Origin: a virus
Taxonomy: Duplodnaviria > Caudoviricetes
Strand: one strand, 5' to 3'
DNA: 64,000 nt
Virus record (IMG/VR): IMGVR_UViG_3300020050_009209
The translations under genes and the position numbers were made by a program. Below, piece by piece: positions 993 through 59,355 of the stretch. The notes beneath the pieces are model-generated. The model was not told where the DNA came from. It worked only from the letters and a program-made list of their open reading frames with translations, and did not search any database. How positions within the stretch are numbered: the first letter of the stretch is position 1; each line of letters starts with the position of its first letter.

Positions 993-1018
993 TTAAGGGC
1001 TTCGCTCTTTCATTCGTA
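993..1018 (+). promoter_or_regulatory. class I phage promoter TTAA-N18-CGTA
   Basis: Motif lies 9 nt before ATG 1028; its TTAA sits in a hairpin arm. Confidence 0.75.
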
Positions 1019-1027
1019 GGGTCTGAC

Positions 1028-1117
1028 ATGAGCAACAACACAACCCACGACTACAAGATCACGAACATCCGAGCTGGCAAGGGGAACCGGTCCCACATTC
1101 TCTACGCGTGTCGATGA
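1028..1117 (+). pseudogene. 29-aa ORF, probable truncated gene remnant
   Basis: Has its own promoter and ATG, then an early stop. Confidence 0.35.
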
Positions 1118-1142
1118 CGATTCTGTTCCGTTTTGAAACTTA

Positions 1143-1178
1143 AGAGGGGTGGTAGTTAGTACTACCACCCCTTCTTTC
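1143..1178 (+). terminator. intrinsic terminator-like hairpin
   Basis: GGGGTGGTAG/CTACCACCCC stem followed by a T-rich tail. Confidence 0.6.
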
Positions 1179-1192
1179 ACATAAGGTAATGT

Positions 1193-1456
1193 ATGGCAAG
1201 TCTGAGTCCTGACTGGGAACCCTATCTTTTTACGAACAGCGTCCTATTTCGTAAGCGTGATGCACGTAGTAGTGCCAAGGCCGGGAAGGACTTCCTCCGG
1301 TTGTGGGGGCATGTGCAACCCACCCCTAGTTGGTTGACCCCACCTCCCCTCCCACCTCTATCGAAAGCTGCTGTAACCAAGCTGACTCAACTTTTTGAGC
1401 TAGCCAGCTCCGTGGTAGTTGTAAGGAGCCCTGTCTCAAAGAAGGAGGGCACATGA
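1193..1456 (+). CDS. hypothetical protein
   Basis: Coupled to the next ORF. Confidence 0.5.
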   Translation: MASLSPDWEPYLFTNSVLFRKRDARSSAKAGKDFLRLWGHVQPTPSWLTPPPLPPLSKAAVTKLTQLFELASSVVVVRSPVSKKEGT

Positions 1457-1773
1457 AGTACGAAATCAAGAACGAAGTCAAAGACAAAATCAGGGACGTC
1501 GTCTCCGATTGGATGGGTCTCAACCTAACCGAAGCTCAAGTGGAAGAGATTCTGAGTGTCCCCTCCCTCCGAGGCGAAATCGAGGAATGGGGTATCAGCG
1601 ATACCGTGACCCGAGAGAAGATCGGGGACTTCCTAGCTCGGAAGATCGTAGGTCGTTCCTGGCCTATGAATGGGGAAGACCAGAAAGGCAAAGATGCCTT
1701 CTACGCGTCCTTTGATACCCGAGCCAAGGAGCTTGGGTATCAGCTTCGTAGACAGTCCCAAAGGGCCAAATGA
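1453..1773 (+). CDS. hypothetical protein
   Basis: GGAGG SD; ATGA overlaps. Confidence 0.75.
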   Translation: MKYEIKNEVKDKIRDVVSDWMGLNLTEAQVEEILSVPSLRGEIEEWGISDTVTREKIGDFLARKIVGRSWPMNGEDQKGKDAFYASFDTRAKELGYQLRRQSQRAK

Positions 1774-1967
1774 GTAAGTACTCAGTTACGGTTCGTCAGT
1801 TTGAGGACCAATTGGTGGAAGCAGAAGCTCGGGTTCGTAGGTTGGAGCTAGAAAACGAGGAGCTAAGGTGCTACATCAAGGACTACAGGATCAACCTTCA
1901 ACGTGCACTAGACAACCTGCAACGTGCACTAGACCTTCTAAAGGCTCCAGGTGTAGGCTTAAAGTGA
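1770..1967 (+). CDS. small coiled-coil protein
   Basis: Heptad pattern; internal LQRALD duplication. Confidence 0.6.
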   Translation: MSKYSVTVRQFEDQLVEAEARVRRLELENEELRCYIKDYRINLQRALDNLQRALDLLKAPGVGLK

Positions 1968-2596
1968 GTACTTCAACTACCATTGACTCTCGTATTGACG
2001 ACATTCAAGCCAACTCCTATCGTGACTTCCATGCCAAAGGACTCGACTACCTCTGTATTCGTCGAGATCTTGAGCTAACACTCAAGGTGTACTTCTTCGA
2101 TGGTGACGCGTCGAAAATTGGCGAGGTCGTAAATCCGCATGACCATCGTTATCACTTTGAAAGTCGCGTACTTGCAGGAGAGGTAGAGAACGTTATCTAC
2201 TCTGAGACGAATGAACCAGCCGAACACTTCGACTTGTTCCACTACACGACTCCGCTCAACGGCTCGACACAGCCAGGGTTCAAGTATCTGAGAACCGCTC
2301 AACTTAAGCGAGACCGCACGGACAACCACCAAGCTGGAGCTGTCTGGGACAGCAGGTCGGCTGCAATCCACACGCTTTCGATCCGTAAGCCGGGTACCGT
2401 TCTGTTCCTTCGTCAGTACGTTGACGTGCTTCCGATTGGTACGCCAACCCAAACTTTCGTTCCTGCTGACCGTGGGGCTCCATCGTTGCAGGGGCTCTAT
2501 CGACGCTTCACACGAGACGAGATCATAGCCAAGATAGCAGAGTTGGAGGCACGTACAGGTAAGACTGTTGACGACCTCCTTAAGATTACGGTGTAG
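1964..2596 (+). CDS. cupin-like hypothetical protein
   Basis: HDHRYHFES...G and IHTL motifs; GTG start overlaps the upstream stop. Confidence 0.6.
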   Translation: MSTSTTIDSRIDDIQANSYRDFHAKGLDYLCIRRDLELTLKVYFFDGDASKIGEVVNPHDHRYHFESRVLAGEVENVIYSETNEPAEHFDLFHYTTPLNGSTQPGFKYLRTAQLKRDRTDNHQAGAVWDSRSAAIHTLSIRKPGTVLFLRQYVDVLPIGTPTQTFVPADRGAPSLQGLYRRFTRDEIIAKIAELEARTGKTVDDLLKITV

Positions 2597-2598
2597 TT

Positions 2599-2874
2599 AT
2601 GCCTCAGGATGGAACCCAGGCAATCCTAAACGAGGCCGTGAGCGTCATCGAGAGACTCTTCCGTAAAGGTAAATTTCAGGTGGTGGACCAAGCTCTCACT
2701 TACCTGAAGGTTGATGCTATACCGTCAGAGGTGCTACTTGGAATTCTAACCATAACCTTCCACGCTAAGGAACACCTCCCCTCTCGACCCGCTTTCTTAG
2801 CTGAAGCTGAGCCTGTCTTGGTTGCAAGGCTAGGATCTCAACGTGCCAACGCTCTACTGAAATACAGACGATAA
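2599..2874 (+). CDS. hypothetical protein
   Basis: Part of a tightly packed string. Confidence 0.65.
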   Translation: MPQDGTQAILNEAVSVIERLFRKGKFQVVDQALTYLKVDAIPSEVLLGILTITFHAKEHLPSRPAFLAEAEPVLVARLGSQRANALLKYRR

Positions 2875-3263: not shown

Positions 3264-3555
3264 GGACAGGTGGCATGGGGAACTTGTACTGACGTTCCAA
3301 CGACTTGCAGGTAAACCTCCTAAGGGCCGTCGATGGAATCGTGCTTGGAGACGTAGACTACTCTCAAGCTTTGAATATCACACGGAGGTTGCTGCGAGAG
3401 TTATGGCTGCGGAAATGGAGCGGGTCGAGAATGACCGGATATTGAACGACCTGATCAACATGGCTAAAGCCCATTGGGACGACACTCATGCTGTCCCGTA
3501 CGACTCTGAAACTGCTGAGAATTTGTACCTCAACTATGACTACCAAATCGACTAA
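3253..3555 (+). CDS. hypothetical protein
   Basis: ATG after GAGGGGG SD within ORF 3121..3555. Confidence 0.5.
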   Translation: MRCKDRWHGELVLTFQRLAGKPPKGRRWNRAWRRRLLSSFEYHTEVAARVMAAEMERVENDRILNDLINMAKAHWDDTHAVPYDSETAENLYLNYDYQID

Positions 3556-4378
3556 GCCAGGCGAGACCATCAAAGTTGCAGTAGCCAACAACGTCCTTCT
3601 AGAGGTCCCCATTTGGGAGGCTCACTTTCGAGGATCCAATTGGATGGCTGTAATTAACGTAGACGGATCCAGTCCTGGAGGTTTGAGCCGTAGGTTTATG
3701 CCAAGAGGCAAGGGGGATTGCTTCTACTTGCTTGAACAACTCCAGCTCTTCGACCCGATCGAATTTGGTGCGGACTACACGACCTCGGTTGGAACTAAGA
3801 AACGAGACCGTTGGTACGGTGTAGTCACTGCGGTCACAGACGGGCACCTAAGCATCGAGAGGACCTCGACAGGGGTAGCGGCCGTCCTGAGAGCCAAAGC
3901 GGCTAGAGAGTCCCCTAGAGATAGAGCAATGGCCCTCCGTGAGACCCTTCAGGCTCACCTAGACCAGGTGGTTGCCATTGAGAGGGAAATTCACGAGCTT
4001 GACCGGACCCCCGTGGAGTCTGAAGTGCCAGCAGATCTACCTACGGTACCGTTTTCCGTAGAAGACTACCAAGCGCCTGCGGTCCCACCTACAGCTGAGC
4101 AGCTAGCCGATTTGTTTAGCGAAGTCGAGCGTACAAAAGATTGCGTTGTGAGAGTTTGGGTATCCCCAACGAGTGTTCGAGTCTTGAAGTCACTTCCAGG
4201 CTTTACCCTGTGTTCTAGCCTCACCCCTGAGGTCTTTGGAAGTCTCTGGGGGGCAACGTTTTTAGTATCCCCAAAGATCCCACATGGGAGGGTATACCTT
4301 ACCCCAGGCAAACTTGAGGATGCCGATCTGGTACCAGAGTGGACCCCGGTACCAGAAGAATTGCAATCTTGGGGTTAA
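3536..4378 (+). CDS. hypothetical protein
   Basis: Long ORF; start chosen at MTTKSTK. Confidence 0.7.
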   Translation: MTTKSTKPGETIKVAVANNVLLEVPIWEAHFRGSNWMAVINVDGSSPGGLSRRFMPRGKGDCFYLLEQLQLFDPIEFGADYTTSVGTKKRDRWYGVVTAVTDGHLSIERTSTGVAAVLRAKAARESPRDRAMALRETLQAHLDQVVAIEREIHELDRTPVESEVPADLPTVPFSVEDYQAPAVPPTAEQLADLFSEVERTKDCVVRVWVSPTSVRVLKSLPGFTLCSSLTPEVFGSLWGATFLVSPKIPHGRVYLTPGKLEDADLVPEWTPVPEELQSWG

Positions 4379-4408
4379 AGATTCCTGACTCTCTCCGTAT
4401 GGTAGAGT

Positions 4409-4738
4409 ATGAAAACCACCACGAAGTTTACGGTTGAGCGCGACGGGCGTGAAGTTACCCTCCTGGTGGAGGCGGATTACTACCCTGGTTCTCCAGGAAG
4501 GACCTACGGACCTCCTGAGAACTGCTATCCCCCTGAGGGGTCGGAACTCGTGGTCTCCAAGCTGACTCTGAACGGCCAGGTTTGGGATGACGCCCTCACG
4601 GATGAGGAAGAGGACGACATCGTTAACACCATGTTGATGGAGGCGGACGCCGCTGAGGAGGAAAGTCCGGAGTACGACTACGACGATCCCCCTCACGAGG
4701 ACTTCTGTAGCTACGAGGACTACTGCGACTACGAGTGA
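4409..4738 (+). CDS. acidic hypothetical protein (probably leaderless)
   Basis: Class I promoter at 4375-4399; D/E-rich; YGPPENCYP motif. Confidence 0.75.
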   Translation: MKTTTKFTVERDGREVTLLVEADYYPGSPGRTYGPPENCYPPEGSELVVSKLTLNGQVWDDALTDEEEDDIVNTMLMEADAAEEESPEYDYDDPPHEDFCSYEDYCDYE

Positions 4739-4747
4739 GCCTCAAAC

Positions 4748-4781
4748 AAAAGCCGAGTGGGAAGTCCACACTCGGCTTTTT
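4748..4781. terminator. terminator-like hairpin
   Basis: AAAAGCCGAGTG...CACTCGGCTTTTT. Confidence 0.7.
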
Positions 4782-4800
4782 ACGTACTGGAAAGTTAAGT

Positions 4801-5073
4801 ATGAACCCTAGGAACCCTAAGTCCAAGTCGCCTAAGTCCAAGTCACCTCTCTGCTTCGAGGCTAGACGGTACGACCTCTCAGCCGAGGAGGCTCGGGAGG
4901 AGCTTCTGAGTATTCGTAGCCTCCTTGACGACCTTCTAACGAAGTCGTCAGACATGCATCGACTTCGAGTCGTATCCGAGTTGAAGGCAAAGTTGACCTT
5001 CGGATTTCGCACGATCGACGACTTGGCAGTTTTGAGTCATATCGCAAACCGACGTAAGCCGCGTAAGACTTAG
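4801..5073 (+). CDS. hypothetical protein
   Basis: ATG downstream of the terminator, inside ORF 4735..5073. Confidence 0.45.
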   Translation: MNPRNPKSKSPKSKSPLCFEARRYDLSAEEAREELLSIRSLLDDLLTKSSDMHRLRVVSELKAKLTFGFRTIDDLAVLSHIANRRKPRKT

Positions 5074-6457: not shown

Positions 6458-6624
6458 GAGTCAGCCTTCACCCCATCCGGGAAGTAGGTTCGAGCGAAGT
6501 CCACCTCCCCATCCTTTCCGGACATAGCTCCTAGAAGGAGCTTGGCAAAATCAGTGTTTCCGGTCAGACTCATTGCAGGATACTTCATGTCCTTACCTAC
6601 GTATCGACCAAGGTACGGTTTAAG

Positions 6625-8686
6625 CTATATTCGATCCACCCAAAGCAACTTCTGCATGGTTACGGAGTACCAACATCCGAGGAAGAACGTTGCAACCACT
6701 GAGATAATGGTACCTACTCCGGAGTAAGCCATTCCGAGGAACATGAGTAGCATGAGAACAACAAGGGTTGTTAGCGTGACTACAGCCTTCAATTGAAGCT
6801 CCTTGCTAACAATTTGTCGAGGTCTAGCGCTCGCTGGCGAATCCAATCTGGAACAGGAGGTCCTTCTAGGGACCTCGCCTTATTGATCCTACAACGGAGC
6901 TTTTCTCTTTCCTCATCCAACTCCGCTTTGATGCGGGCGGTCTGAGCTTTAGACACTCCTCGAAACTCTTCGTCATGGGCTTTACACAAGGTACTGACAA
7001 GCTTATTGCCTTCGTACCACTGAGTGTACGCAACCACTTCACAGTGATCACACGGGGTGTTCGGACCGAGACGCTTCTCTTGCTTTCCTAGCATTTACTT
7101 CCTCTCAGAACGCATTGCAAAACGTTAATAGCACAGATTCAGTGGAGGGTTGGTTGAACATTCGCCGCTCGAAGAGCCTCTAGGATTTTCTCGGCCTGGT
7201 ACTGCATGAACCCAGCTTGAATTGCATCCTTCGGGGGGAGGTCTAGCCCTTGATTAATTAGGCAACTTACCGTTTCCTGGATGTAGGACTCTCGTATACG
7301 TTCTGAGTCTACCGTCCACACCCCATCAGGGCTCGTAAAGCCTACTCTTGTGCGCGATGGTAGTATAGGGTGGACTTTTGGCGCCCCATGAATTCGGCAT
7401 TGCTCCGTAAGCTTAGCGAGGAATTCCTCGAAGGTGTAAGTGCTCACTTAACCAGCCTTGTATTGACTACAACCATAGCCTCCTTGTGCGTTAGACCTTC
7501 GAGATAGCCCGGACTAGCCCCCACAACCAAGAAGTTACCGTACATTGCTCTCCCGCTCGGTATGAATCGATTGAAAGGTAGGTGCTGAATGTCCCTGTTT
7601 GAGAGGACACTGAACATCCCCTCTCGGGTAAGCTCTAAGTTTGAAACCCCAAGTAGAAAATGAGCTTCCTGGAAGAGACGATCGTCACGTCTACCTAAGT
7701 CAACGATTTTAGGCTTGTCCCCAACTCGGTAAAGTACGGCCTTAGACTTGAGACTAGGAGTTGAGTTCAGGTTCGGGTTGTTCTTATGCAAGTCAATGCC
7801 TCAGTCTCGATCGGGTAGCTTACCGGTCACTGCCAACAACACCCAGGTTGCGAACATGGTAGCAAGATACAGGACCGGAGGAATGAAAACGATGTACCAT
7901 CTTGTCATAGAGATGATACCTACGGCAAGGGAAATCACTAGGAAAAAGTTGATAAGGTAGGCGACAAAGAAGGTTGAGATGACCCACTTAACGAGCGCAT
8001 CCGATTCAGCCTTGCTTTGACTCATGGGTAACGGTGACCTGTCCAAGTGCTTGTCGTAAGGTCCCACTCCATCGGAGTGTCGATAATGACCTCTGGGTCC
8101 TTCCGCCAAGTAGAGAGCCGAAAGGTTCCTCTGGGGCCTATAATCTGCCTAGTCTTTTGACTATCCCCTGTCTCTAGGTTGTAGAGACCAGGCCAAATCC
8201 GTTGACCTACGGGGAAAAACACCTCTCCTTTGGGGTTAAGCTGTACGGCTTCCCATTCGAGGAGCTTCTCTAGGGTCACGTCAGCAAACCCTGGTAGTTC
8301 TTGGATGTTGCGGTACCGACATTCGAAGAGCCTTGGGAGGGGCCGTAGCGCGTCAATAACCGCCTGCTTGCACTGAGGGCACCAGGTACTGTCATTCAAG
8401 GGAGCGTTACAACCATGCCCACTTCCCTGATAGCTGTATCGAGTCCCACAATGAGAACAGCGCTTGAGCTGATGAGTCGTCATATACTTCGTTACACTCA
8501 CTTCGACTCAAGCTCCACTGGAGTCGACTGGAAATTAGGTTGAGATGCCGCAAGCACCCAATTCAAGTAGGCATCATACCCGATCGTACCAAAGGACTTC
8601 CACGCAAGAGCTTCACGGGAAGGTTTCTCATTCAGGTTCGGCTTCGGGCAGTCGGGTCGAGTAATCATATCAGTAACTACGAACAT
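6625..8686 (-). other. string of small hypothetical ORFs (6625-6846 membrane, 6789-7094, 7139-7447, 7444-7791, 7801-~8025 membrane, 8022-8501 Zn-finger, 8498-8686)
   Basis: Abutting or overlapping minus-strand ORFs. Confidence 0.65.
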
Positions 8687-9164
8687 TGCACTCAGCTACT
8701 TAACTACTTTATAGGTAGTCTCCTTAGCACATGCAGAATAGAGAGGTGGGTGGGCTCTCTTAGCCACTTTTGCAATCGAAGGGAGAGCTTCACCAAAGGG
8801 GTTGCCCCCCAGCGCACGGGTCTAAAGTAGGGGCCGTAGTAAAATTCGTCTAACATCGGGGGTTACTTACGCTACCTCCCCTTGGTAGTCAAATGCTAGC
8901 ACGCAGAAAGGCCTACCCGTTTTAAGGTAGGCCTTCTCTTACCAGGTGAAGAGACTTGTGGTCTCTCCCGAGGAACCTAACTCTTGATCAGAAAGCTAGG
9001 GTTCCTCTGCAAGCGGACTCCCTCCGCACGATTATATTCATTGAGGTCTCTTTCGTCGCTACAAGGTTAACCTCAGGTAGGACCGAGTCCATACTCTAGA
9101 GGTGTTCTGGTTAAGGTGGCCAACCTCTCCAGTCATGTTACTTACGTTCGTCTCGCCCTACACT

Positions 9165-9536
9165 TTAACCAAGAACTTCGATTTTCTCCCCTGCGGTAAG
9201 AGTCTCGATCGTATCTAGGATCCAACGTAGCTCCCTACTAGGGGAGTTTACTTCGATGTCGGACTCGTCATCAATGTTTGAACCCGACAGTCGAACAGTG
9301 TCAGAGAGGAAGCAAAGGTCGAAAGACCAATTTTCAGTGGACCATTCCGCTTGAACTCCACCCTCTGGCGTTGGGTAGATGTAAACTCTGGCCTCTAGGA
9401 TATCTTCCACACGGGGGAGATACTCTCGTGCTGTCTCTATGGCTGCCCTCGAAGGTGCGAACCCACAGCCATCTAGCCACCCATCTTTGAGGTTAAGTAA
9501 CTCAGTCAACCTCGCGTTGATCGTTTCCAGACTCAC
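9165..9536 (-). CDS. hypothetical protein
   Basis: L..GWLDG...P...IYPTPEGGVQAEW pattern. Confidence 0.7.
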   Translation of the reverse strand: MSLETINARLTELLNLKDGWLDGCGFAPSRAAIETAREYLPRVEDILEARVYIYPTPEGGVQAEWSTENWSFDLCFLSDTVRLSGSNIDDESDIEVNSPSRELRWILDTIETLTAGEKIEVLG

Positions 9537-10762
9537 GACTTACCAAGCTTTGCTAGAGCCAAGGAGTAACCCGCATGTCGTTGACGTTCCAACTCCAACT
9601 GAGACACAACGTCCCAACCTGCGAGGAGAGCTGCCTCAAGTCGGACGATAGCCTCATCCGTGCTTGCGAGAAGCCTGGAGAGCCTCTCCACTGGAGCGCC
9701 GCGTTGAATCAGCCTTGAAGTTACGGTTACCATATAACCCCCTACGGGTTCGAGGTGATCTGGCTTAACTTTTCTTTCAGCTCTTGAGCAGAAATGTCGA
9801 GTTCGATCGAGCTGTTAAAGAGTGCGAGAACTTCGAGCGTCTTAGAGTGGATCAAAGTGGCCTCATCAAAGGCTGCCTTTGTCGTAACCGCTAGGTGCTT
9901 CCACCTCTCGGTCTCGGATCGCCAGTAGCTAACTTGGGCGCTTTTGTACATGTAGGTCAGCCCGATAGTTACAAGCAAACCAGCGAAAATCAAAACTACC
10001 ACTTATGCTTCTCCTCTAGACTCAGGTATGTACCGTGAAGTTCACCGAGTAAAGACACGTCTGCCGGATCCCGACTTGATGATCGACTTGGGCGATGGTG
10101 ACGCGTGTTGCCATCAGCAGCTAAGGCAACAGTAACTACGATCTGCATCGGAACTAACCTCTGGACTCAAGTATACCTCTGCCGGGTCCTCTAGAATCAG
10201 ACTCAGTCTGGACCTACCTCGAATTTGAATAGGCGGGTTAGGTCCTGGACGAGTCCAATCTAGGGTCTGAGTCGCCATTGTAGCTTCGAGGTGGTCAAGG
10301 TCCCACCCAGCAGCTAAGGCCACAACAACGCCGACCCGAATCGCAGACAACTTCAGAGTATCACCTTCGCGGGGGTACCAGCTAACTACTGGACCCCTCG
10401 CATACTCTGGGAAGGCTGCGAGTACAGCGTTAAAAACTTCAGGGGGCAACTTCATTACTGGCGGGCTCAACTTCCTCGATGTCGTTGATATCTGCCATAC
10501 ACCAGTAGCGACCTCGACCTACCCAAACAATTTGAGGGTTTTGTGCGGGGACCGTTTGACCGTGGAGGGGGTAAGCATCACTGCCAGGCATAAGATGATG
10601 CACGCGCACCTTACGTCGCTTGGTGTTGATCACGGGGTCACCGTAACCCCCTCGACCCATGTCCACAATCAAGATGTCAGCCTTAAGGGTCACAACATCC
10701 CCCTTCTTAAGGGGGAGCTTACGCTCGTCATGGTAGCCAAGGTACTTTTTGGTGGTGCTCAT
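9533..10762 (-). other. small hypothetical ORFs (9533-9733, 9742-10002, 10114-10470, 10439-10762)
   Basis: Class I promoters at 9743-9768 and 10772-10797. Confidence 0.65.
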
Positions 10763-10884
10763 AGAGTGTAGTACGAGATGGAGGGCTAGGCCCTTAACCT
10801 AGATCGACGGAGACAGGAAGGGCTTGATTTTTTCAGACAGGTGCTGTAAGCTAACCCTTAGAAACTCTAACTGAAAAGGTATTT

Positions 10885-11949: not shown

Positions 11950-12187
11950 GCCTACCCTACGTAATGCAAACGCCAGCGTTAACTTGTTTTTGTGTACACC
12001 CTAGGCTTGTACACCCAGTACTCGTTCGACACGTAACCTACAATCGCAGTACCTGTAGCTATCTTATCGTAGGCGATTAGCCAGTCTTTGATCTTCCTCT
12101 CAGCTAGCACCATGGACAACTCAGACAAGCTCTCGGCTTGGAGCGTAACATCTCCCTGTAGGCCTCCACGGTAGTCGGCGAACACCA

Positions 12188-14398: not shown

Positions 14399-15010
14399 TG
14401 TGTGTCTCCTTGCCTGATACTACGAAGTGAGACCAGAAAGCTTTAACCGACTTCTACGATTTTCTTCTTCGGCTGGTAGGGTTGGTGGGAGTCGAACCCA
14501 CTTGGTAGCTGCAAAGTCATGAGGGAAACGCGCTTCCTTCTATGGGCAGGTATCGGCCGTACCCCCAACTGTTACCAGGTGGGGCCATAGTCAGTGCATC
14601 CGCAACCTCACTTCAATTCTGAAGCTCCTCTCCGAGCTTCCTACTCCAGCTATGGCTTTCGCCCCTCGATCCGTTTTTGAGTGCCTTTCCGTCAGGCTCC
14701 AACCCTATAGTGCCGGTCTTTCCCGGCTGTCACTTGACTCACCCAATTCACCGTACGTCAAGAGTAAGGACGAAGGAGACTCAACACGACCACTTCCGTT
14801 GGGTGCCCCGATTCCACTACCCGCACACCACCACGACACCACACCACTTAATTAGTCCCGCCTACTTTACCACAAGCTGTACACACTCCATGCTTCATTG
14901 CTGAAGCTCCGTCATGGTACACATGAGTGCAACGCACCTGTAGGTGTTTTAGCTCTTCCTCGAAGTCCTTTATAGCCTTCTGGAGGTGCTCCTTCAAGGC
15001 CTTAGCTGAC

Positions 15011-15573: not shown

Positions 15574-15603
15574 ACAGACCTTACGTACCTCGTACTGAGA
15601 GCC

Positions 15604-16080
15604 TTAATCATAATCGTAGCTGGCAAACAGCCTATCTGCTGCCTCTTTTACCGAGAGGCCTTCCTCAAAGACAGTAAAGGGTTGCCCCACTGGGACTTTC
15701 TTACGCTTGACTCTCTTGTACTCTACCACATCCACGCACATAAGTACCTGAGCGAGGTCGTTTGGAGGGTCTTGGGGGGCTCCAAAAATGAACCGGGCGT
15801 TTGGGACTGGAGCGAGCATCAAGTTGGGGTGAGACTCGAACATCTTCTTTATAGCCTGGAACCTAGGTTTCAGGTCTACTTGACTATCCACCTTGAACGT
15901 CGACTTTGAGGGCTGACGGTCTTGCTCAGCTATGAGCTTCAGACAAGTCTTGCACTTCGGTACGAGGTGAGGGGCCACGTACTTAGGGTCGATGTTACGA
16001 CCACACCACATGGCGTCCTCGGTTTCAAGTAACGCATGAGCAACGAGGTGCCCCGAGACGATACCTAGAATCCACTTCAT
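15604..16080 (-). CDS. hypothetical protein
   Basis: ATG overlaps the upstream stop. Confidence 0.55.
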   Translation of the reverse strand: MKWILGIVSGHLVAHALLETEDAMWCGRNIDPKYVAPHLVPKCKTCLKLIAEQDRQPSKSTFKVDSQVDLKPRFQAIKKMFESHPNLMLAPVPNARFIFGAPQDPPNDLAQVLMCVDVVEYKRVKRKKVPVGQPFTVFEEGLSVKEAADRLFASYDYD

Positions 16081-17012: not shown

Positions 17013-17043
17013 GGCAGGTACTACGTAGGTTGACGTGGAGTCT

Positions 17044-20549: not shown

Positions 20550-20618
20550 AACACTGGCCTTTCTTACTGGTACTTACGAAAAGCCAGTGCTTAGACTTAA
20601 CTACTTTCTACCGCTCTG

Positions 20619-21289: not shown

Positions 21290-21604
21290 CTAGCTAGCCC
21301 AGAACTTTTCAGCCATTCTCATGGCTCTTTGGATGTTTGCCAAACCCACCGGGTTTGCCGAATGCACCCTCCACGTCATTGAACGTAGAGTCCCAAAGTA
21401 AGCTCTCTTCTCGATAAACTGAGCTACCAGGTATCCTGTACCCGAGGTGCTCCCGAGGTCATGATCAAAGTCAATCTCGGTAACCTCACCTCTCGCCAGA
21501 ATTCGACAAGCCTCCATAGCAGAGGAGACTCCCACCCAACCCTGAGGCGGGTGCCGGTCAGGGGTAGACGGGTCGTCAATTTGGTCGTCAAGCCACAGTT
21601 TCAT
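21290..21604 (-). CDS. cyclic-phosphate-processing receiver domain protein
   Basis: KLWLDD...DFDHDLG..TGY...HSANPVG. Confidence 0.85.
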   Translation of the reverse strand: MKLWLDDQIDDPSTPDRHPPQGWVGVSSAMEACRILARGEVTEIDFDHDLGSTSGTGYLVAQFIEKRAYFGTLRSMTWRVHSANPVGLANIQRAMRMAEKFWAS

Positions 21605-43935: not shown

Positions 43936-43961
43936 TACGGATAGTCTACGATAAAAGGATT

Positions 43962-45125
43962 CTACATCCCCCGAGAGACCATCCGCTGAGTGCCCTTTAC
44001 GGACAACCCAATGGTGGTTGCAATCTCGTTGAGATTGCAACCTTCGCTGAGAAGCTTGAGGATCTCAACCTCACGCTCCTGATTCCCCTCCGCAGACCAG
44101 CCCAGAGCCTTGCGGCTAGACTTACCAGAGGCAATCAGCTTCACAGTTTGAGTGAGGTCCACAATGACCTCTTGCTGACACCCATGAGGGTCGACGATAG
44201 CACTCTCCCATGAGACCTCTTCGCTACCCTCTCTTGGGGTGACAACAATCTCCTTGTGCCTACGAGACTTGGTTCGCAACCAGTTCACATAGATATTGAA
44301 GACAGCTCGGTACAAGTACTGCTTGAAGGTACCACGAGTCCTAGGAAGGTGAGGAGACCCAGAGGTATCGTAATCAACGACCTTCCGACCTTTGATTCGG
44401 AACTCCTCCCGAATCGCCTCGTACTTCTCAATGTCTGACTTAGAATAAGTAGCCTCAGAGGACATGCAATCCCCACTAATAGGAGATGGCGCCCACTGAC
44501 CCTTTAACCTAGGGCAACAAAAGAGGCACAAGGTGTGCACTTCCGAGAGGGTAGGTTCAAGACTACTCACTTCCGCATTACCCGTACGGTACAAGTAGAA
44601 GTTTTGGAAACGAGAAACCACCCAAAAGACTTGACGGGTCTTAGGGATCCCGAACTCCCGCTGAAGGTTCTCTCGTTCCTCCTCTTGAAGGTCCTTGGAC
44701 ATCAACCTAAGCTTGCTAGCATAGGAATTCATGTCGGTACCACAAGAAGAGCATACCCCGTGGTCCCTACTCTCCACTTCCTCTAGAAGAGCCTTAGAGG
44801 GACGCTCTACCTTCAATCCCTTAGGGAAGACTCCCAAGACGTATCGGTATACCGCCATCTTGAAAGCACTTTCTTGCATCTTCAGGTAAGCAGCAGCTGA
44901 GGAAGCTGTCACAACCTCAGGCAACCTTACCGAGTAGGAGTTGTCATACTTCCTTAGGAAGTCGGCTTCAAACAACTTGAGCCAGACATGCTGGATGATA
45001 TCCGCCGAGTTATCAGCTACCTTGTTAGCCTTTCGGATCGCACTACTCACAAAGGTGGAGTAATGCTTTACGAAGTCGTTGTTGTTCTTAGGTACGTAGT
45101 CTTCATCAGTCTTTTTAACAAGCAT
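43962..45125 (-). CDS. ECF-like sigma factor with a ~200-aa HTH/HNH-like insertion in region 2
   Basis: ADIIQHVWLKL..KYD / RGTFKQYLYRAVFN..VNWLR; region 4 EREVEILKLLSEGCNLNEIATTIGLS; start set by class I promoter at 45135-45160. Confidence 0.7.
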   Translation of the reverse strand: MLVKKTDEDYVPKNNNDFVKHYSTFVSSAIRKANKVADNSADIIQHVWLKLFEADFLRKYDNSYSVRLPEVVTASSAAAYLKMQESAFKMAVYRYVLGVFPKGLKVERPSKALLEEVESRDHGVCSSCGTDMNSYASKLRLMSKDLQEEERENLQREFGIPKTRQVFWVVSRFQNFYLYRTGNAEVSSLEPTLSEVHTLCLFCCPRLKGQWAPSPISGDCMSSEATYSKSDIEKYEAIREEFRIKGRKVVDYDTSGSPHLPRTRGTFKQYLYRAVFNIYVNWLRTKSRRHKEIVVTPREGSEEVSWESAIVDPHGCQQEVIVDLTQTVKLIASGKSSRKALGWSAEGNQEREVEILKLLSEGCNLNEIATTIGLSVKGTQRMVSRGM

Positions 45126-45756
45126 CGTCTTCCTTACGGAAGTTGGAGGTGAACACTTAACCGAAAACTTGATCCCACACACACACATGACTACTAAGTA
45201 GGATTGAGGTACTGAGGAGGGCTGCTCTATCTAGGGGGGTAGGGTTAGGATGACTGGTTAGGTTGAAAGGGATGTTCGTATCAGGATGATTGGTTTTTGA
45301 GTTAGTTTCGCTACGCTATACCAAAAAGAATAAGATCTGATCGGTATAGGAGGGGTTAAGGATGGTGGTCCTAGGTAGTAACCCCTATCTGAGTCTACTG
45401 AGTCCTTGAGGGACTCTTTGGTCGGAGTGAGTTATGAAGTACCTACCTCAATGCTCACTTACTTACGGGATCTGCCTAACTTTCCACAACTTCATGTTAG
45501 ACTGGAGCGACTCATCTTTCAGAGCCTCCTCTCCAAGGAGAGGACCTTAAGAGACCTTCTAGAGGAAAGAAGCTGACCCCTCTAGACTAACCCACACAGG
45601 CTTTTCAAGTACTGATCAGGAAGTGCTGTCACTACTTGTCCTACTTTCTAGTAGGTATGGAACCCTATAACCCATCCCTCGGTCACTGAGGTTGACCCCT
45701 CTCGTATAGACCTGAGAAACCCCTAGCGCAAGTCATTTTGTTCTGGTACCATCTCA

Positions 45757-48588: not shown

Positions 48589-48626
48589 AGAGTACTCTAC
48601 GGAAAGGCCTAGGTTAGACTTAACCC

Positions 48627-49145
48627 TTACCGACCGTACTCGTACACGAAAACAGGTATGCCCTGAAGCTGCTCCTGAATGATTGGTTCAATCACGGCCC
48701 AGTCCCCTCCGGCAAGCCCTGTTCCAATTTTCGGCATGTGTACGCTCGCGTTGAAAAACTTAGCGTACTCGGCAACCTGCCCCAGACAGGTCCGTAGGGC
48801 TTCGTATCGAATAGGCGGAATGGTAGAATCCACCGAGTGTCGCACACTCTCTTGGGCGATCATATTCACAACCGCCAAGTCGTCACTGACTTTGACAACC
48901 TGGATCTCTCCAAGAGCGAAAGATCCAGATGTTGTGACCATTTTGTCATCATAGTTTCCTCGGAACCCGTAGTTCCCTCGGAACCAATTACGATACTGAA
49001 TCTCTGGTTCGCTCCAACGCTTGGAGATAGAAAGTACGAAACCTGCCCCCCAAGCCCCAACGGTGTTGCAGATATGTACCAGCAGCTTTGGTCCAGGTTC
49101 TTGGGGACGCGTAGCATCCCCCTTTAGGTAAGTGATTGACATCAA
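48627..49145 (-). CDS. macro domain protein
   Basis: YLKGDAT, HICN..G.WGAGF, MPKIGTGLAGGDW. Confidence 0.9.
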   Translation of the reverse strand: MMSITYLKGDATRPQEPGPKLLVHICNTVGAWGAGFVLSISKRWSEPEIQYRNWFRGNYGFRGNYDDKMVTTSGSFALGEIQVVKVSDDLAVVNMIAQESVRHSVDSTIPPIRYEALRTCLGQVAEYAKFFNASVHMPKIGTGLAGGDWAVIEPIIQEQLQGIPVFVYEYGR

Positions 49146-50508: not shown

Positions 50509-50582
50509 TACGAGAGAGGTGGAGCCAGAGTTAACCGAAAAATTCTTTCGTTTGAGGTTAAGTCCTCCTTGTTGGTCTCGTA
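50509..50582. promoter_or_regulatory. back-to-back class I promoters
   Basis: Minus strand 50509-50534; plus strand 50558-50582. Confidence 0.75.
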
Positions 50583-51560: not shown

Positions 51561-51586
51561 TTAAGGGTTCGAGCGGTGTCTACGTA
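51561..51586 (+). promoter_or_regulatory. class I promoter opening the tRNA cluster
   Basis: TTAA-N18-CGTA 14 nt before tRNA-Tyr. Confidence 0.75.
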
Positions 51587-51600
51587 GGGTACGATGATTC

Positions 51601-51679
51601 GGGGTTGTCCGGCTGGGACCGGAAGATGTCTGTAAAACAACTGGTTATACCTAACTAGGTTCAATTCCTAGCAGCCCCA
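51601..51679 (+). tRNA. tRNA-Tyr(GTA), atypical D arm
   Basis: GGGGTTG/CAGCCCC; loop CTGTAAA; GTTCAATTC. Confidence 0.7.
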
Positions 51680-51743
51680 CTGGAAAACAAGGAAAGTCAT
51701 GAAACAGAAGTCCATGCCCGTGAAAGACGGGCCAAAACAATAC

Positions 51744-53375: not shown

Positions 53376-53544
53376 ACGTTTCGGTGTAGGTGTCCTAGTG
53401 CAAACGTTTTTACCCTATGCAGACTACCAGAAGTTCTTTGACGAGCCTCTAGACCTACCTTATGTGTGGCCATCTGCAAGGCTCTGAACTTTTCGGTTAA
53501 AGTTTTCCCTGATGGTACGTAGGTTACGGTGTAAGACACGATAC

Positions 53545-53630
53545 GGAGAGTGCCCTAGGCAATGGAAGCCTTAGCTGACTGTAAATCAGTGGCCCTCAAG
53601 CAAGTGGTTCGATTCCACCACTCTCCACCA
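53545..53630 (+). tRNA. tRNA-Tyr(GTA)
   Basis: Loop CTGTAAA; long variable arm; ACCA end. Confidence 0.85.
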
Positions 53631-54134: not shown

Positions 54135-54368
54135 CAAAGAGCTACGGTGAAAACGTATCAACGTAGCTCTTAGATGTCAGAGTCCCGGCTAGGAGTCCGG
54201 CAAAAAGATACTCGGTAAGTATGGCAAACGAGGGGTCCCCAAGCTCCTTGCCCGTTCGACACGGGATAATACGAGTGGGCGTTTGAGGTGTGTCGCAACA
54301 CGCTGATATCGAACCTTTGGTCCATCTAGGAGAGCGGTTCAAGATCTACTTATCGCTTACGCCTAAGT

Positions 54369-54827
54369 ATGGGTCATCCTCGAAAAACCAGAACTTTGTG
54401 TCAGATCTGCGGGAAACTTGTAGCTAACTTGAGATCTACGTTCTGCTCGAACGTCTGTCAGAATGAATCTCAGTATCGCTCGTTCATTGAGCGTTGGAGA
54501 TTAGGACAGGAGATTGGTAACAAAAGTTCCGGTCGAACCCTTCAAGTATCAAGTCATATTCGCCGTTACCTCCGAGAGAAGTTTGGAGATCGCTGCACGA
54601 AATGCGGATGGGCTGAGCGGCACCCTACAACGAAGCGGATCCCTCTTAACGTTGAGCATATCAACGGAGACCCATTTGACTCCTCAGAGGGTAATCTCAC
54701 GCTACTTTGTCCAAATTGTCATTCTTTGACCGTTACATTTGGGATTCTGAATCGCGGACGTGGTAGAACAAGTCGACATGGGGCTGTCGTCCAACGGGAG
54801 GACATGAGACTGGCAGTCTCAGAATAA
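54369..54827 (+). CDS. HNH endonuclease
   Basis: CTKCGW...VEHINGD....NL.LLCPNCH. Confidence 0.9.
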   Translation: MGHPRKTRTLCQICGKLVANLRSTFCSNVCQNESQYRSFIERWRLGQEIGNKSSGRTLQVSSHIRRYLREKFGDRCTKCGWAERHPTTKRIPLNVEHINGDPFDSSEGNLTLLCPNCHSLTVTFGILNRGRGRTSRHGAVVQREDMRLAVSE

Positions 54828-55164: not shown

Positions 55165-55422
55165 ATGCTAGTGCAGGTCCAAGTAGGTAGGTTCAAGATC
55201 TCCTTTTCAGGCTCCGAGTTGTACTACATGACCTTCGAGTGTGTGGACTACAATGGGGTCATTCTTGCAGACTCTACGCAGAGGTATGAGGTTCTGAACG
55301 GGGCTCTTGGGGAGAGGTTACTCATTACACGGAAACATGAGTTTGGTTTCTGCCAAGACCTACCCTTTCACCTGGGTACTGCCCACTTCCTCCCAAAAGG
55401 AGTGACTGTCGATTTAAGTTAA
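55165..55422 (+). CDS. hypothetical protein
   Basis: ATG ORF between RNA genes. Confidence 0.45.
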   Translation: MLVQVQVGRFKISFSGSELYYMTFECVDYNGVILADSTQRYEVLNGALGERLLITRKHEFGFCQDLPFHLGTAHFLPKGVTVDLS

Positions 55423-55452
55423 GACCTGGGTCCTACTTGACGTAGGCACCTA

Positions 55453-55793
55453 AGACAGGTAAACCACCTACGTTAACTAGGTAGGTGCTGACCGAACCAG
55501 AAGAGTGGTTTCATTCTGGTGTAGATGGAGGTCTTAGTGCCTCTCGGGACAACGGACATCTAGGGTTATGGCTGGTCTGAAATGGTGGGGAGTTCCCCAA
55601 GAAAGACTATCCTGTACCGCTACCTCTAGAGGTAGTAACTAGATGTTGTCAGTGTGAAACCAGAACTCCCTCTCTTCACGAGAGAGCCTTGAAGGATGCG
55701 GACGGGGAAAGTAACGCGGTCAAGACAACTTTCTTGTAATCAGGCGTAGGTACGGCCTGAGTCTCCTAAGGGAGTACGAATAACGACCTGTTT
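55453..55793 (+). ncRNA. candidate ~340-nt structured RNA
   Basis: Own class I promoter at 55419-55444; paired 5'/3' ends; many hairpins; pseudoknot. Confidence 0.6.
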
Positions 55794-57409: not shown

Positions 57410-58105
57410 ATGGTGGGTATGACCCCAATAGTATCCACGTCCTACGACGGCTCAGCTAGGAGACTTTGGTTAAAGTCCTGTATGGTGTGCAGTAAAGACT
57501 TTTACCTACCTAAGCATCGACTGCTAGGCTCTCGTTCTTGTTCCAGGGTTTGTGCAGCTAAAGCCAGAGCTGATAGAAATCGGCAAGCTGGGCATACCGT
57601 TGAGGTTGTATGCACTCAGTGTTCTAGATCCTTTAGTCGTAAGGCTGCACACGCTAAAAGAGTAGGTACCACATTTTGCAATCAGACGTGTCGATGGCAG
57701 CATAGGAAAACACAACAGCCTACTAAGCTATGCCTTCAGTGTGGGGTTGCAGGTACTTCTAAGTACTGTCCAAAGTCTAGTTGTCGATCTCAGTTTCAGT
57801 TTGAGGCTTACATTGCGCGTTGGAAGTTAGGGTTAGAAACTGGAAACGAAGGGGCCTTAACAGCTGGGGCTATATCTCCCTATGTTCGTAGGTACTGCCT
57901 TGAGTTAGCTGGTAACCAATGCTCAGAGTGTGGGTGGGCTAAAGTCAACTCTGTCACAGGGAAGATACCACTAACGATTGACCACATAAATGGTGACTCT
58001 GCCGACTCTAGGCAATCTAACCTTAGAGTTTTGTGCCCAAGTTGCCACTCACTTACGCCTACCTATGGGTCTCTTAATCGAGGTAAGGGTAGAGTTCGAC
58101 GTTAA
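57410..58105 (+). CDS. HNH endonuclease with N-terminal Zn-finger repeats
   Basis: TIDHINGD....NLRVLCPSCH. Confidence 0.9.
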   Translation: MVGMTPIVSTSYDGSARRLWLKSCMVCSKDFYLPKHRLLGSRSCSRVCAAKARADRNRQAGHTVEVVCTQCSRSFSRKAAHAKRVGTTFCNQTCRWQHRKTQQPTKLCLQCGVAGTSKYCPKSSCRSQFQFEAYIARWKLGLETGNEGALTAGAISPYVRRYCLELAGNQCSECGWAKVNSVTGKIPLTIDHINGDSADSRQSNLRVLCPSCHSLTPTYGSLNRGKGRVRR

Positions 58106-58146
58106 AGGTTGACTGGGTGAGTACGTAAGGTAGGGTGAGGGTTCGC

Positions 58147-58218
58147 TCGGGTATCGTCCATCGGTTAAGACGACTGACTTTGAATCAGTAGAGCGTGGTT
58201 CGATTCCACGTGCCCGAA
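58147..58218 (+). tRNA. tRNA-Gln(TTG)
   Basis: Loop CTTTGAA; class I promoter at 58102-58127. Confidence 0.9.
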
Positions 58219-58291
58219 CTAGGAATAATTATGCATGTGTACTCTCAGGGTAGACGGTAAGTCAGTCGAGTCCGATACGAAGTGAATTTTC

Positions 58292-58364
58292 GGGGCTGTA
58301 GCTCATTTGGTAGAGCGCCTGGTTTGCATCCAGGATGTGGGGGGTTCGAATCCCTTCAGCTCCA
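58292..58364 (+). tRNA. tRNA-Ala(TGC)
   Basis: Canonical; G3:U70. Confidence 0.94.
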
Positions 58365-58366
58365 CT

Positions 58367-58465
58367 TCAACACATGAGGTGGTCGTGGGAGGCATCCCCT
58401 ACGAGGTTCGATTCCTCAATTTGCCTGGTGGTTAAATGAAGCCGTTCGACTCGGCAATGTGTTGA
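58367..58465 (+). ncRNA. tRNA-mimic with two T-arms
   Basis: 9-bp closing stem; two GTTCGA T-loop hairpins. Confidence 0.6.
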
Positions 58466-58468
58466 TCT

Positions 58469-58544
58469 AGGGTACGACGAGCTGGTTGCTCTTGAAATCC
58501 TGATAAGATTTCTGTGCTGGGTTCGATTCCCAGGTGCCCTACCA
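58469..58544 (+). tRNA. tRNA-Ile(GAT)
   Basis: Loop CTGATAA; ACCA end. Confidence 0.8.
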
Positions 58545-58587
58545 TTAGCGCGAGTGGTTAATCGACTTATGTCTTACCTTGGGGGGT

Positions 58588-59301
58588 ATGGTATCGATTA
58601 ATAGCACCCCTTACGCTCAACGCACTACCGCCCATAAAAAGGCGAACTCATTAGCAGTGTCCACCTTTAGACTTAGGCTTAAGGCCAGGGCAGTGGAGTA
58701 TAAAGGTGGTTGTTGTGTGGTATGTGGGTACTCAAAGTGCGTGTCGGCCCTACACTTCCACCATATTGACGAAAGTGCTAAGGACTTTACAATAGGTAGG
58801 AACTTACGCTCTTGGGAGAAACTTAAACTTGAGCTAGATAAGTGTGAGTTGATTTGTGCCAACTGCCATGCTGAGGTACATGCTCAAAAAGACGCAGAGA
58901 GTCTGAGGGTACGTAAGGTTGAGGTACTTAAGTTATTAGGGGCTCCTAAACTAGCCCCAGAGCATGGGCTACGCGGGTACACCAAAGGTTGCAGGTGTGA
59001 CGTTTGTAGGTTAGCTAACAGCGTAAGCGTAAGTAACTACCGAGAGAGACAGAAACTAGGAAAATCTAAACCTAGGAAGCCATCAATCAGACCTACTCGG
59101 ATAACTTGGCCATCCACTGAGGAACTAGCTCGAATGGTTAGAGAGTCCCCCACTGCTTCAGTGGCTAGTAAGCTTGGTGTGTCTGGGGTTGCGGTGAGAA
59201 AAAGATGTCTAAAGCTCGGAATTAAAACAACCCCACGAGGAGGTTGGGGGCACAACCAGTACTCAGAGTTACCATCAAATCCCACTAGGGTCGCGAAGTA
59301 G
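58588..59301 (+). CDS. HNH endonuclease, paralog of 52368..53090
   Basis: AVEYKGG..CGYSKC...HFHHID...ICANCH. Confidence 0.88.
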   Translation: MVSINSTPYAQRTTAHKKANSLAVSTFRLRLKARAVEYKGGCCVVCGYSKCVSALHFHHIDESAKDFTIGRNLRSWEKLKLELDKCELICANCHAEVHAQKDAESLRVRKVEVLKLLGAPKLAPEHGLRGYTKGCRCDVCRLANSVSVSNYRERQKLGKSKPRKPSIRPTRITWPSTEELARMVRESPTASVASKLGVSGVAVRKRCLKLGIKTTPRGGWGHNQYSELPSNPTRVAK

Positions 59302-59355
59302 TGGTTAACTCTTACCCTCTGGGTGACGTAAGGTCTAACAGAGAGGTGGTGCAAA

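Follow-up and report, generated by a model that had tools for sequence, protein, structure and literature searches.

A probable two-box promoter class with mostly leaderless geometry in an uncultured huge phage and its relatives

The DNA analysed here is a stretch of 64,000 nucleotides (nt) from IMG/VR virus record IMGVR_UViG_3300020050_009209 (Duplodnaviria; Caudoviricetes), and the whole stretch is referred to below as the window. It carries 34 exact copies, spread over both strands, of a two-box motif, TTAA-N17/18-CGTA, which is very probably a promoter. The reading favoured here, held to be moderately probable as a whole, is that these copies form one promoter class, served by the host core RNA polymerase together with a phage-encoded sigma factor resembling the extracytoplasmic function (ECF) group, and giving rise mostly to leaderless mRNAs. 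TTAA would act as the −35 element and CGTA as an ECF-type −10 element, bound by this polymerase. The favoured reader of the motif would be the 387-amino-acid (aa) product of a gene at 43962–45125 (−), called sigma A in the following.

The motif and the genes behind it

The abundance of the motif is far above what base composition can provide. In 100 dinucleotide shuffles of the window the mean count was 2.1 and the maximum 8, so that none of the 100 reached 34; enrichment over shuffled sequence had been set as a test beforehand. An exact-pattern scan of both strands recovered all 28 copies listed in the original prediction and added six, at 8678 (−), 25184 (−), 26693 (+), 45093 (−), 48620 (+) and 61785 (+). 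When all pairs of tetramers separated by 18 bases were ranked without any prior, TTAA/CGTA came first with 28 occurrences, and the next unrelated pair reached 13. The fixed spacer of 17–18 nt described earlier is also borne out. It is 17 nt in six copies (4375, 11958, 26693, 48620, 50558 and 53497) and 18 nt in the other 28, and the same boxes at other spacers from 8 to 29 nt occur 0–2 times each, except for N26 with four. Variants with one mismatch number 84 versus 62.6 in simulated sequence, and most of them reread an exact copy in a shifted register, so that the eight core letters hardly vary. Only one such variant is convincing; it lies at 21612–21639 (−), reads TTTA/TTAG ... TACGTA, and has an ATG at N9 that is the start of the gene 21290–21604.

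Conservation extends beyond the core. A G precedes TTAA in 24 of 28 copies, a purine (R) follows TTAA, a T stands two bases before CGTA in 20 of 28, and CGTA is followed by R-G, in most copies by R-G-G. The seven bases located 3–9 nt upstream of TTAA are 67% A/T, compared with 48% window-wide. The extended form of the promoter would thus be G-TTAA-R, 15 variable bases and T-n-CGTA-R-G, with an A/T-rich patch just upstream. Four copies (993, 53497, 45160 and 50534) bear the upstream TTTTCGG extension that had been reported for several, and positions 980–996 are indeed identical to 53484–53500. Sites of the sigma-70 type are scarce by comparison. TTGACA-N16-18-TATAAT with at least 10 of 12 matching positions occurs once in the window versus 5.0 times in simulated sequence, and weak sites of this kind in the 35–54 kb region number 7 versus 11.5 expected. 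The motif is the sole recurrent promoter-like signal in a window poor in sigma-70-type sites.

The position of the start codon behind the motif is equally regular. An ATG had been claimed to lie 8–9 nt after CGTA in most copies, and this holds for 20 of the 34 (N9 in 16, N8 in 4) and for 18 of the 28 listed earlier; the open reading frames (ORFs) concerned encode 29–452 aa. Among the 550 other CGTA tetramers of the window, only four are followed at N9 by an ATG that opens an ORF of 45 aa or more. All 20 N8/9 starts are ATG, and in 19 of the 20 a pyrimidine directly precedes this codon, versus 37 of 68 other ATG genes of the window. Shine-Dalgarno-like runs of at least 4 nt precede 5 of the 16 N8/9 genes for which a gene caller chose the same start, which equals the rate of 27% at random positions. 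Other genes, internal to the motif-headed units, have such a run in 43 of 86 cases, versus the same 27% at random positions. Where homologues allow a comparison, the N-termini set by the motif agree with them, both for sigma A and for a 452-aa protein (phrog_6077, profile positions 3–327).

Counting the A of CGTA as −10 would place TTAA at −35 to −32 and make the A of an ATG nine bases further on +1. About 60% of the units would then be transcribed as leaderless mRNAs, and the others would have leaders of 11–25 nt or yield tRNA precursors. That the mRNAs of this class are mostly leaderless, as the original prediction had it, is likely on this geometry, and the fixed ATG distance and the pyrimidine in front of it lend the idea indirect support. 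The available part of the study by Todor et al. describes a pyrimidine–purine step at likely ECF start sites, counted from the flipped −10 base, adenine as the starting base of predicted leaderless transcripts, and A/T-rich UP elements upstream.

The remaining copies help to define what kind of signal the motif is. Two have their ATG at 11–12 nt after CGTA, and four are followed by leaders of 22–25 nt, each of which contains a Shine-Dalgarno-like run (AAGGAG, AAAGG, GAGGTG or GAGGTGG). Three copies precede tRNA genes, at distances of 15, 27 and 20 nt. The motif precedes tRNA genes, and Shine-Dalgarno runs appear only with the long leaders; it is therefore a transcription signal and not a translation signal. 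The earlier proposal of a bipartite promoter is thus upheld by the fixed spacer, the A/T patch, the presence of tRNA genes as well as ORFs behind the copies, and the Shine-Dalgarno runs in long leaders. Three copies have an unclear product, and two lie inside genes, which equals the number expected by chance.

The motif is closely packed against the preceding gene. In 11 of the 34 copies (for example, 4375, 15607, 29089 and 58102), the TAA of TTAA serves as the stop codon for an upstream ORF of 50 aa or more. In two copies the stop codon of the upstream ORF is the TAG formed by CGTA and a following G, and in three a TAG lies three bases before TTAA. Two divergent pairs of copies have a common palindromic TTAA, at 26693–26696 and 48620–48623. 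From this packing and the fixed distance to the ATG, the typical module therefore consists of a stop codon in the −35 box, 18 bases, CGTA, nine bases and ATG.

The motif might instead be no promoter at all. It might serve translation, mark a boundary at which recombination or the shuffling of modules takes place, or bind a protein that has nothing to do with initiation. The motif carries stop codons (TAA in TTAA, TAR in CGTA+R), an upstream ORF ends there in 13 of the 34 copies, and both TTAA and TACGTA are palindromes. Against this idea, the motif is strictly oriented with the downstream gene and also stands before tRNA genes, the copies with long leaders add a Shine-Dalgarno run of their own, and the −35/−10 distances and the pyrimidine before the ATG fit initiation. 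An explanation of this kind is therefore scarcely credible, and the motif is regarded as a promoter in what follows.

The individual copies are distributed as follows. With an ATG at N9, those on the plus strand are 993–1018 (ATG 1028, 29 aa, TTTTCGG extension), 4375–4399 (ATG 4409, 109 aa, upstream stop as the TAA in TTAA), 32372–32397 (ATG 32407, 102 aa) and 50558–50582 (ATG 50592, 75 aa), the last being divergent from the copy at 50509–50534. On the minus strand, N9 copies stand at 6598–6623 (ATG 6588, 57 aa), 8678–8703 (ATG 8668, 56 aa), 9743–9768 (ATG 9733, 66 aa, upstream stop as the TAG of CGTA+G), 10772–10797 (ATG 10762, 107 aa), 17022–17047 (ATG 17012, 170 aa), 17852–17877 (ATG 17842, 122 aa), 22289–22314 (ATG 22279, 145 aa) and 23852–23877 (ATG 23842, 242 aa). 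Further N9 copies on this strand are 25184–25209 (ATG 25174, 57 aa, in frame within the ORF 25001–25579), 26671–26696 (ATG 26661, 86 aa), 45135–45160 (ATG 45125, the start of sigma A, with TTTTCGG extension) and 48598–48623 (ATG 48588, 91 aa). The four N8 copies are all on the minus strand: 11958–11982 (ATG 11949, 115 aa), 15582–15607 (ATG 15573, 99 aa), 19126–19151 (ATG 19117, 52 aa) and 50509–50534 (ATG 50500, the 452-aa protein, with TTTTCGG extension).

The two copies with slightly longer distances are on the plus strand, at 26693–26717 (ATG at N12, 26730, 116 aa), which is the divergent partner of 26671–26696, and at 29089–29114 (ATG at N11, 29126, a 247-aa metallophosphatase). Leaders with Shine-Dalgarno-like runs follow 14421–14446 (−) (22 nt with AAGGAG, ATG 14398, 64 aa), 20575–20600 (−) (25 nt with AAAGG, ATG 20549, a 233-aa RNA ligase), 32004–32029 (−) (24 nt with GAGGTG, ATG 31979, 115 aa) and 59305–59330 (+) (25 nt with GAGGTGG, ATG 59356, 82 aa). 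The copy at 51561–51586 (+) heads the tRNA cluster, with a tRNA-Tyr gene 15 nt on. The copy at 53497–53521 (+), which has the TTTTCGG extension, lies 27 nt before another tRNA-Tyr gene, and the one at 58102–58127 (+) lies 20 nt before a tRNA-Gln gene. The two tRNA-Tyr(GTA) genes, 51601–51680 and 53548–53626 (+), each stand directly behind a motif copy of their own. These two promoters have 17 upstream bases in common; the identity of 980–996 with 53484–53500 concerns another pair.

As for the copies with an unclear product, 55419–55444 (+) is followed by about 350 nt without an ORF of at least 40 aa and then by a tRNA-Met gene at 55794. The copy at 9143–9168 (−) has only a 25-aa ORF behind it, with its ATG 6 nt on, and then about 440 nt without a convincing gene. 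The copy at 48620–48644 (+) has its TTAA in common with 48598–48623 and runs antisense into the gene 48627–49142, so its function is doubtful. Of the two copies inside genes, 45093–45118 (−) is enclosed in the coding sequence of sigma A, is followed by no start and is probably a chance copy, about two being expected; 61785–61810 (+) lies inside the gene 61055–62959 for a protein with a VWA domain and is probably due to chance as well, or else an internal promoter. Two stretches behind motif copies, 55445–55793 (+) and 8704–9142 (−), of some 350–440 nt, have no convincing ORF or Rfam match and may yield non-coding RNAs.

Relatives with motif letters of their own

The alignment of the sigma A family, used as a query, led to 11 IMG/VR loci on contigs of 19–513 kb, with 26–37% identity. 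The motif of the window was absent from these 11 loci (about 21 kb each), and five whole relative records contained 0–5 copies, no more than a reversed-pattern control. These five records, designated G001 to G005, were searched de novo. The search took in the whole of G001 and G002 and, for G003 (448 kb), G004 (407 kb) and G005 (435 kb), the first 400 kb. Raw pair counts in the relatives of high G+C content turned out to be dominated by codon periodicity and were discarded; the control used instead counted each pair at spacers that keep its codon phase.

Each relative proved to have a motif of its own. In G002, GTTGA-N17-CGTT occurs 61 times versus 12.8 in the control, with an ATG at N8 in 19 of 61 copies and a pyrimidine before the ATG in 23 of 23. 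The same motif is found 32 times in G004 (as TGAA-N16-CGTT, 32 versus 7.2), with an ATG at N8 in 15 of 32 and a pyrimidine in 15 of 15. G001 has GTTG-N18-GTGT, which is equivalent to GTTGA-N17-GTGT, 37 times versus 11.8, with an ATG at N9 in 12 of 36 copies and a pyrimidine in 13 of 14. For G005 the motif is AAAA-N16-CGTC, with 44 copies versus 6 and 39 more at N15; an ATG stands at N11 in 10 and at N8 in 7 of 43, and the pyrimidine is present in 33 of 33. Finally, TATA-N18-CGTT occurs 42 times in G003 versus 0.8 in the control, with 0–3 copies at other spacers, an ATG at N8 in 15 of 42 copies and a C before the ATG in 20 of 21. The −10 box, CGTA in the window, is accordingly CGTT, CGTC or (T)GT in the relatives, and the copies of each relative cluster in one arm of about 100 kb. 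The presence in five relatives of an own motif with the ATG distance and the pyrimidine retained argues that the leaderless ECF-like promoter design is a property of the phage clade, with letters private to each genome. As a separate observation, the −35 box holds a stop codon in four of the five relatives too (TGA in TTGA, TAG in TATAG).

The sigma A gene is tied to these motifs. A homologue is encoded in all six genomes and stands directly behind its own genome's motif in five of the six. In the four relatives concerned (G002, G004, G001 and G005) the motif lies directly upstream, with G-rich leaders of 15–23 nt. As a rough estimate, the probability of five such hits by chance is well below 0.001 if 7–30% of the genes carry a motif. 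Comparison of the proteins further shows that the three genomes with TTGA have SLP[KQ][TS] in the helix-turn-helix of sigma A and that the genomes with TTAA and TATAG differ there, a suggestive co-variation between this helix-turn-helix and the −35 letters.

The possibility that the motif belongs to an unrecognised phage RNA polymerase, either of the single-subunit type or a divergent multisubunit enzyme as in phiKZ, is very unlikely. The start might then lie at the G run after CGTA, and R-G-G in most copies of the window would fit this. Very divergent phage polymerases can escape Pfam models, and a search of the relatives with the single-subunit model PF00940, which gave no match, had no positive control. 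On the other hand, no beta or beta' domain (PF00562, PF00623) was detected in the five relatives, three of which are complete, in a search whose 14 controls were all positive, and none of the window's large proteins was recognised as polymerase-like. The sequence that follows the −10 box also varies between relatives. In the promoter of a T7-like single-subunit polymerase, conservation runs unbroken over about 20 bp up to the start. The motif described here consists instead of two boxes with 15–16 unconserved bases between them and two spacer lengths, 17 and 18, which is the geometry of a sigma-type promoter.

Two further sets of candidates were considered and dismissed. In a search for close kin, a 16-base version of the window motif matched six IMG/VR and 90 metagenome loci with a single strict match each. 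These 96 loci contain at most four loose copies, those with three to four include A/T-rich contigs, and none has tblastx similarity to the window, so the matches are attributed to chance. In loci L006 and L009, a TGGGATGG-N10-ATG signal was taken at first for a promoter and is really a tandem protein repeat within a gene. The repeats, about 12 in number and about 123 nt long, lie at ~3300–4820 (−) in L006 and ~790–2420 (−) in L009, and each contains TGGGATGG-N10-ATGTATGT. The gene probably encodes a beta-propeller-like repeat protein.

Candidate readers of the motif

That the reader of the motif is encoded by the phage is likely. Sigma A is a divergent ECF-like sigma factor with an insert of about 200 aa, bearing four conserved cysteines, apparently between regions 2.2 and 2.3. 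It matches TIGR02937, the model of the ECF superfamily, with an E-value of 3.8e-7 and 29.9 bits (cut-off 42.9), and the match is split by about 200 residues, sigma A 17–66 and 265–386 corresponding to model positions 3–47 and 50–157. The match to Sigma70_r2 has an E-value of 0.045. An exhaustive search for homologues gave 155 representatives, 11 of them at an E-value of 1e-30 or better. When 60 family members were aligned, 37 matched Sigma70_r2 individually and a few matched region 4; a profile of the family has weak matches to solved sigma factors. In a protein atlas, all neighbours of sigma A are sigma clusters.

The insert, located at residues ~100–260, has invariant C125, C128, C200 and C203 in the 12 closest members. 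These 12 also have a common F-x-x-Y-L...N-W-x-R-T-x-x-R-R block, which is read here as resembling regions 2.3/2.4. The insert would sit where the −10 specificity loop of ordinary ECF sigmas lies. Many distant family members (250–320 aa) seem to be without it. Closer relatives, with sigma proteins 91% and 97% identical, were found in Logan contigs only; tblastn with sigma A gave no match in 50,697 cultured-phage records, and neither IMG/VR nor the JGI metagenomes yielded a relative when sigma A alone was the query.

Sigma A is the favoured reader because it stands behind its own genome's motif, through which it would feed back on itself and thus be autoregulating. About half of the ECF sigmas autoregulate, and self-placement has been used to find their promoters, according to the available part of Todor et al. 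The idea of one dedicated sigma factor, contained in the original prediction, has gained strength from the tandem ECF-like genes described below, from the variants of the relatives and from the self-placement in five of six genomes, and is plausible; the specific reader stays a candidate. For sigma A in particular, the sequence evidence gives a chance close to even and slightly short of it.

The main competitor is the product of the next gene, sigma B (43111–43935, −), a second divergent ECF-like sigma of 274 aa that starts 26 nt behind sigma A. The motif might be read by sigma B, which might be made late and carried in the virion, by both sigmas together, or by a third sigma-like protein. In that case sigma A would be no more than a product of the class, with a later class under its control, as in the cascade of SPO1. 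Several observations fit such a reader. Sigma B shares a transcription unit with sigma A in the window and adjoins it in all four relatives tested. It has weak ECF matches (its best match is NF058625, with an E-value of 2.4e-4 and 20.9 bits versus a cut-off of 130), and its atlas neighbours are sigma-like as well. Delivery with the virion would explain the source of the first sigma A, and a sigma A gene without a motif of its own, as found in G003, would also fit.

Sigma B is, moreover, associated with a second motif, ATCnnnTTrTC, which lies 13–17 nt before its start in all five genomes checked (the window, G001, G002, G004 and G005) and in the window takes the form ATCCTTTTATC (43950–43960), so that sigma B could be made at another time. 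ATCnnnTTrTC is rare in the window, with three copies, and may be a second motif class read by sigma B. One copy, at 54344–54354 (+), lies 14 nt before the ATG of the gene 54369–54827. The same association also counts against sigma B as reader of TTAA-N17/18-CGTA, as the upstream motif is of the other class and the autoregulation heuristic points sigma B there. Its N-terminus, as read here, is a poor fit to the proposed virion-cargo tag.

The third sigma-like protein, of about 205–215 aa, lacks region 2 and contains two helix-turn-helix units that resemble region 4. Its gene is at G004:112073, G005:237626, G001:153729, G002:73228 and G003:397412. By eye it is highly conserved in the four relatives inspected, and it was not located in the window. 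The identity to the window proteins in four relatives is 33–52% for sigma B and 31–37% for sigma A, which is the least conserved of the three sigma-like proteins. Sigma B and the third protein are thus more conserved than sigma A, whereas the promoter letters differ between genomes. Overall, a phage factor other than sigma A is an unlikely though serious explanation, and sigma A is retained as the favoured candidate.

Several points weigh against the proposed class and its reader. The start sites are predictions from sequence. Sigma A and sigma B are both below the curated cut-offs of every sigma model, and the third sigma-like gene of the relatives adds a further candidate. The ECF −35 element is typically of the AAC type, and no AAC occurs among the −35 letters, which are G-TTAA-R here and TTGA, TATAG or AAAA in the relatives. 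The sigma A homologue of G003 lacks its genome's motif in the 90 nt upstream, and the locus has none upstream on the same strand either. The co-variation between the helix-turn-helix and the −35 letters is confounded by ancestry, as the TTGA genomes are the closest kin and the AAAA genome resembles them. Finally, if sigma A reads its own, only visible promoter, another source must make the first molecules, and none was found.

This last difficulty would disappear if a host sigma factor served the class, either an alternative ECF sigma, for example of the iron-starvation (IS) group, or an unusual housekeeping sigma, with the phage sigmas reserved for later classes only. The class includes both phage sigma genes, as host-read early classes do in SPO1, and the sequence shows no origin for the first phage sigma. 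PvdS-type ECF sigmas have an IS box, given as TAAAT-N16-CGT in the available part of PMC2235872, which T-TAAnn-N16-CGT-A fits with the same spacing and six of eight fixed letters. The rigid spacer, the TAA-to-CGT distance, TAA and CGT are alike in both, and the last two letters of TAAAT are unconserved here (R, any). The sigma-model search gave no PvdS-specific match for the phage sigmas.

A host reader is nevertheless improbable. Six related phages with five letter sets would require as many different host factors, the housekeeping consensus changes little from one bacterium to another, and ECF sigmas are as a rule kept in an inactive state. A near-invariant core, as seen here, is more characteristic of promoters that serve phage-specific factors than of those of the host, and the motif recurs in none of the 96 loci from the two collection scans. 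A phage-encoded reader is therefore still preferred.

Setting, known systems and biological meaning

The window has 52% G+C, many small ORFs and alternating strand blocks, and 23 tRNA genes lie between 51.6 and 63.4 kb. Recognisable proteins include an RNA ligase, an RlaP-type nucleotidyltransferase, a metallophosphatase, an ADP-ribosylglycohydrolase, a DNA methyltransferase, a papain-like peptidase and a VWA protein. In the ORF 35104–36231 (−), a helix-turn-helix occurs together with two domains, S-adenosylmethionine decarboxylase and GIY-YIG nuclease. The timing of the class is judged from gene content only, and the tRNAs, the RNA repair functions, the methyltransferase and the numerous small proteins suggest that it is early or middle.

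Megablast with 20 kb of the window against the 50,697 cultured-phage records gave no close DNA match, and distant protein matches are to phages of Pseudomonas, Vibrio and enterobacteria. Part of the stretch, as near-identical or related sequence, is contained in 20 of 24 sequencing runs from 15 studies of freshwater, wastewater, sludge and runoff, each with less than half of the sampled words; in view of these small shares, no habitat claim is drawn. Four RNA-labelled runs hold related sequence as contigs, some of which cross promoters; these may include DNA, and contigs cannot show RNA 5' ends.

Phage-encoded sigma factors are known from other systems, such as gp28 and gp33/34 of Bacillus phage SPO1, which form a sigma cascade. 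As far as the available text of PMC8948821 goes, gp47 of Salmonella phage 7-11 reads GTAAtg-N16-aCTA and gp36 of phiEco32 reads tAATGTAtA, with starts 6–9 bp from the element. In these phages, as in the reading proposed here, a phage sigma re-targets the host core without a polymerase of its own, to promoters unlike the host consensus (PMC8948821 for 7-11 and phiEco32). The bipartite promoter with a fixed spacer is a further likeness to 7-11, according to the same text, and the 34 copies in 64 kb compare there with eight in the whole 7-11 genome. Unlike 7-11, phiEco32 and SPO1, the class described here combines a near-invariant core, a fixed ATG distance implying leaderless mRNAs, a CGT −10 box and a sigma A without a cultured-phage match.

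The likeness to ECF promoters, as far as these are covered by the available sources, lies in the CGT core of the −10 box, the sigma gene behind its own promoter and the A/T-rich patch upstream. The differences are the −35 letters TTAA, TTGA, TATA or AAAA in place of AAC, the ~200-aa four-cysteine insert in region 2, scores below the ECF cut-offs, and the fact that the sigma is phage-encoded.

Leaderless mRNAs as such occur elsewhere, for example lambda cI transcribed from PRM, in mycobacterial transcriptomes and in Thermus phage phiYS40. They have in common with the present arrangement a −10 box about 10 nt before the ATG, the absence of a Shine-Dalgarno sequence and a start at A, which is a prediction here. 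What sets the predicted mRNAs apart is that they are tied to one non-housekeeping class, are kept in six huge phages as the letters change, and head units whose internal genes still use Shine-Dalgarno sequences. In Deinococcus deserti, the available account likewise places the −10 box of leaderless mRNAs about 10 nt before the ATG. Among jumbo phages, phiKZ is without leaderless transcripts according to the accessible part of PMC8244752, and AR9 has long leaders according to that of PMC5312081. The group 2 jumbo phages of Iyer et al. 2021 have phage-encoded sigmas and no RNA polymerase (PMC7824862), like the relatives studied here, which have sigma-like genes and no detectable polymerase. That account, in its available part, deals with proteins only, with no promoters, leaderless arrangement or sigma with an insert in region 2.

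No description of the motif, of the split sigma A family or of a clade-wide leaderless sigma regulon in huge phages was found in the available portion of the literature, and entries for these sigma families may exist in the supplements of Al-Shayeb 2020 and Iyer 2021. What is new here are the motif variants of the five relatives with the same ATG distance and pyrimidine rule; phage sigmas with promoters of their own were already known.

Almost nothing is known about transcription in uncultured huge phages. A single short rule identifies the heads of some 30 transcription units within 64 kb, with comparable numbers in five relatives, and fixes many true start codons, including those of very small genes. 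The finding raises the questions of what makes the first sigma and why most units would begin with a leaderless gene when internal genes use Shine-Dalgarno sequences. The predicted leaderless arrangement is kept in six genomes of about 290–450 kb as the letters drift, which points to co-evolution of sigma and promoter and provides testable candidates for orthogonal sigma/promoter pairs.

A bolder idea, offered tentatively and with rather less than even confidence, is that this clade runs a private, fast-evolving code, with near-invariant letters of its own in each genome, a sigma split in region 2 and transcription that starts on the start codon. If so, the clade would represent a natural library of mutually orthogonal sigma/promoter pairs with built-in leaderless expression, and the four-cysteine insert would provide a novel means of recognising a −10 element. 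The start signals of transcription and translation would then be merged in a module of 35 bp that often also holds the stop codon of the previous gene.

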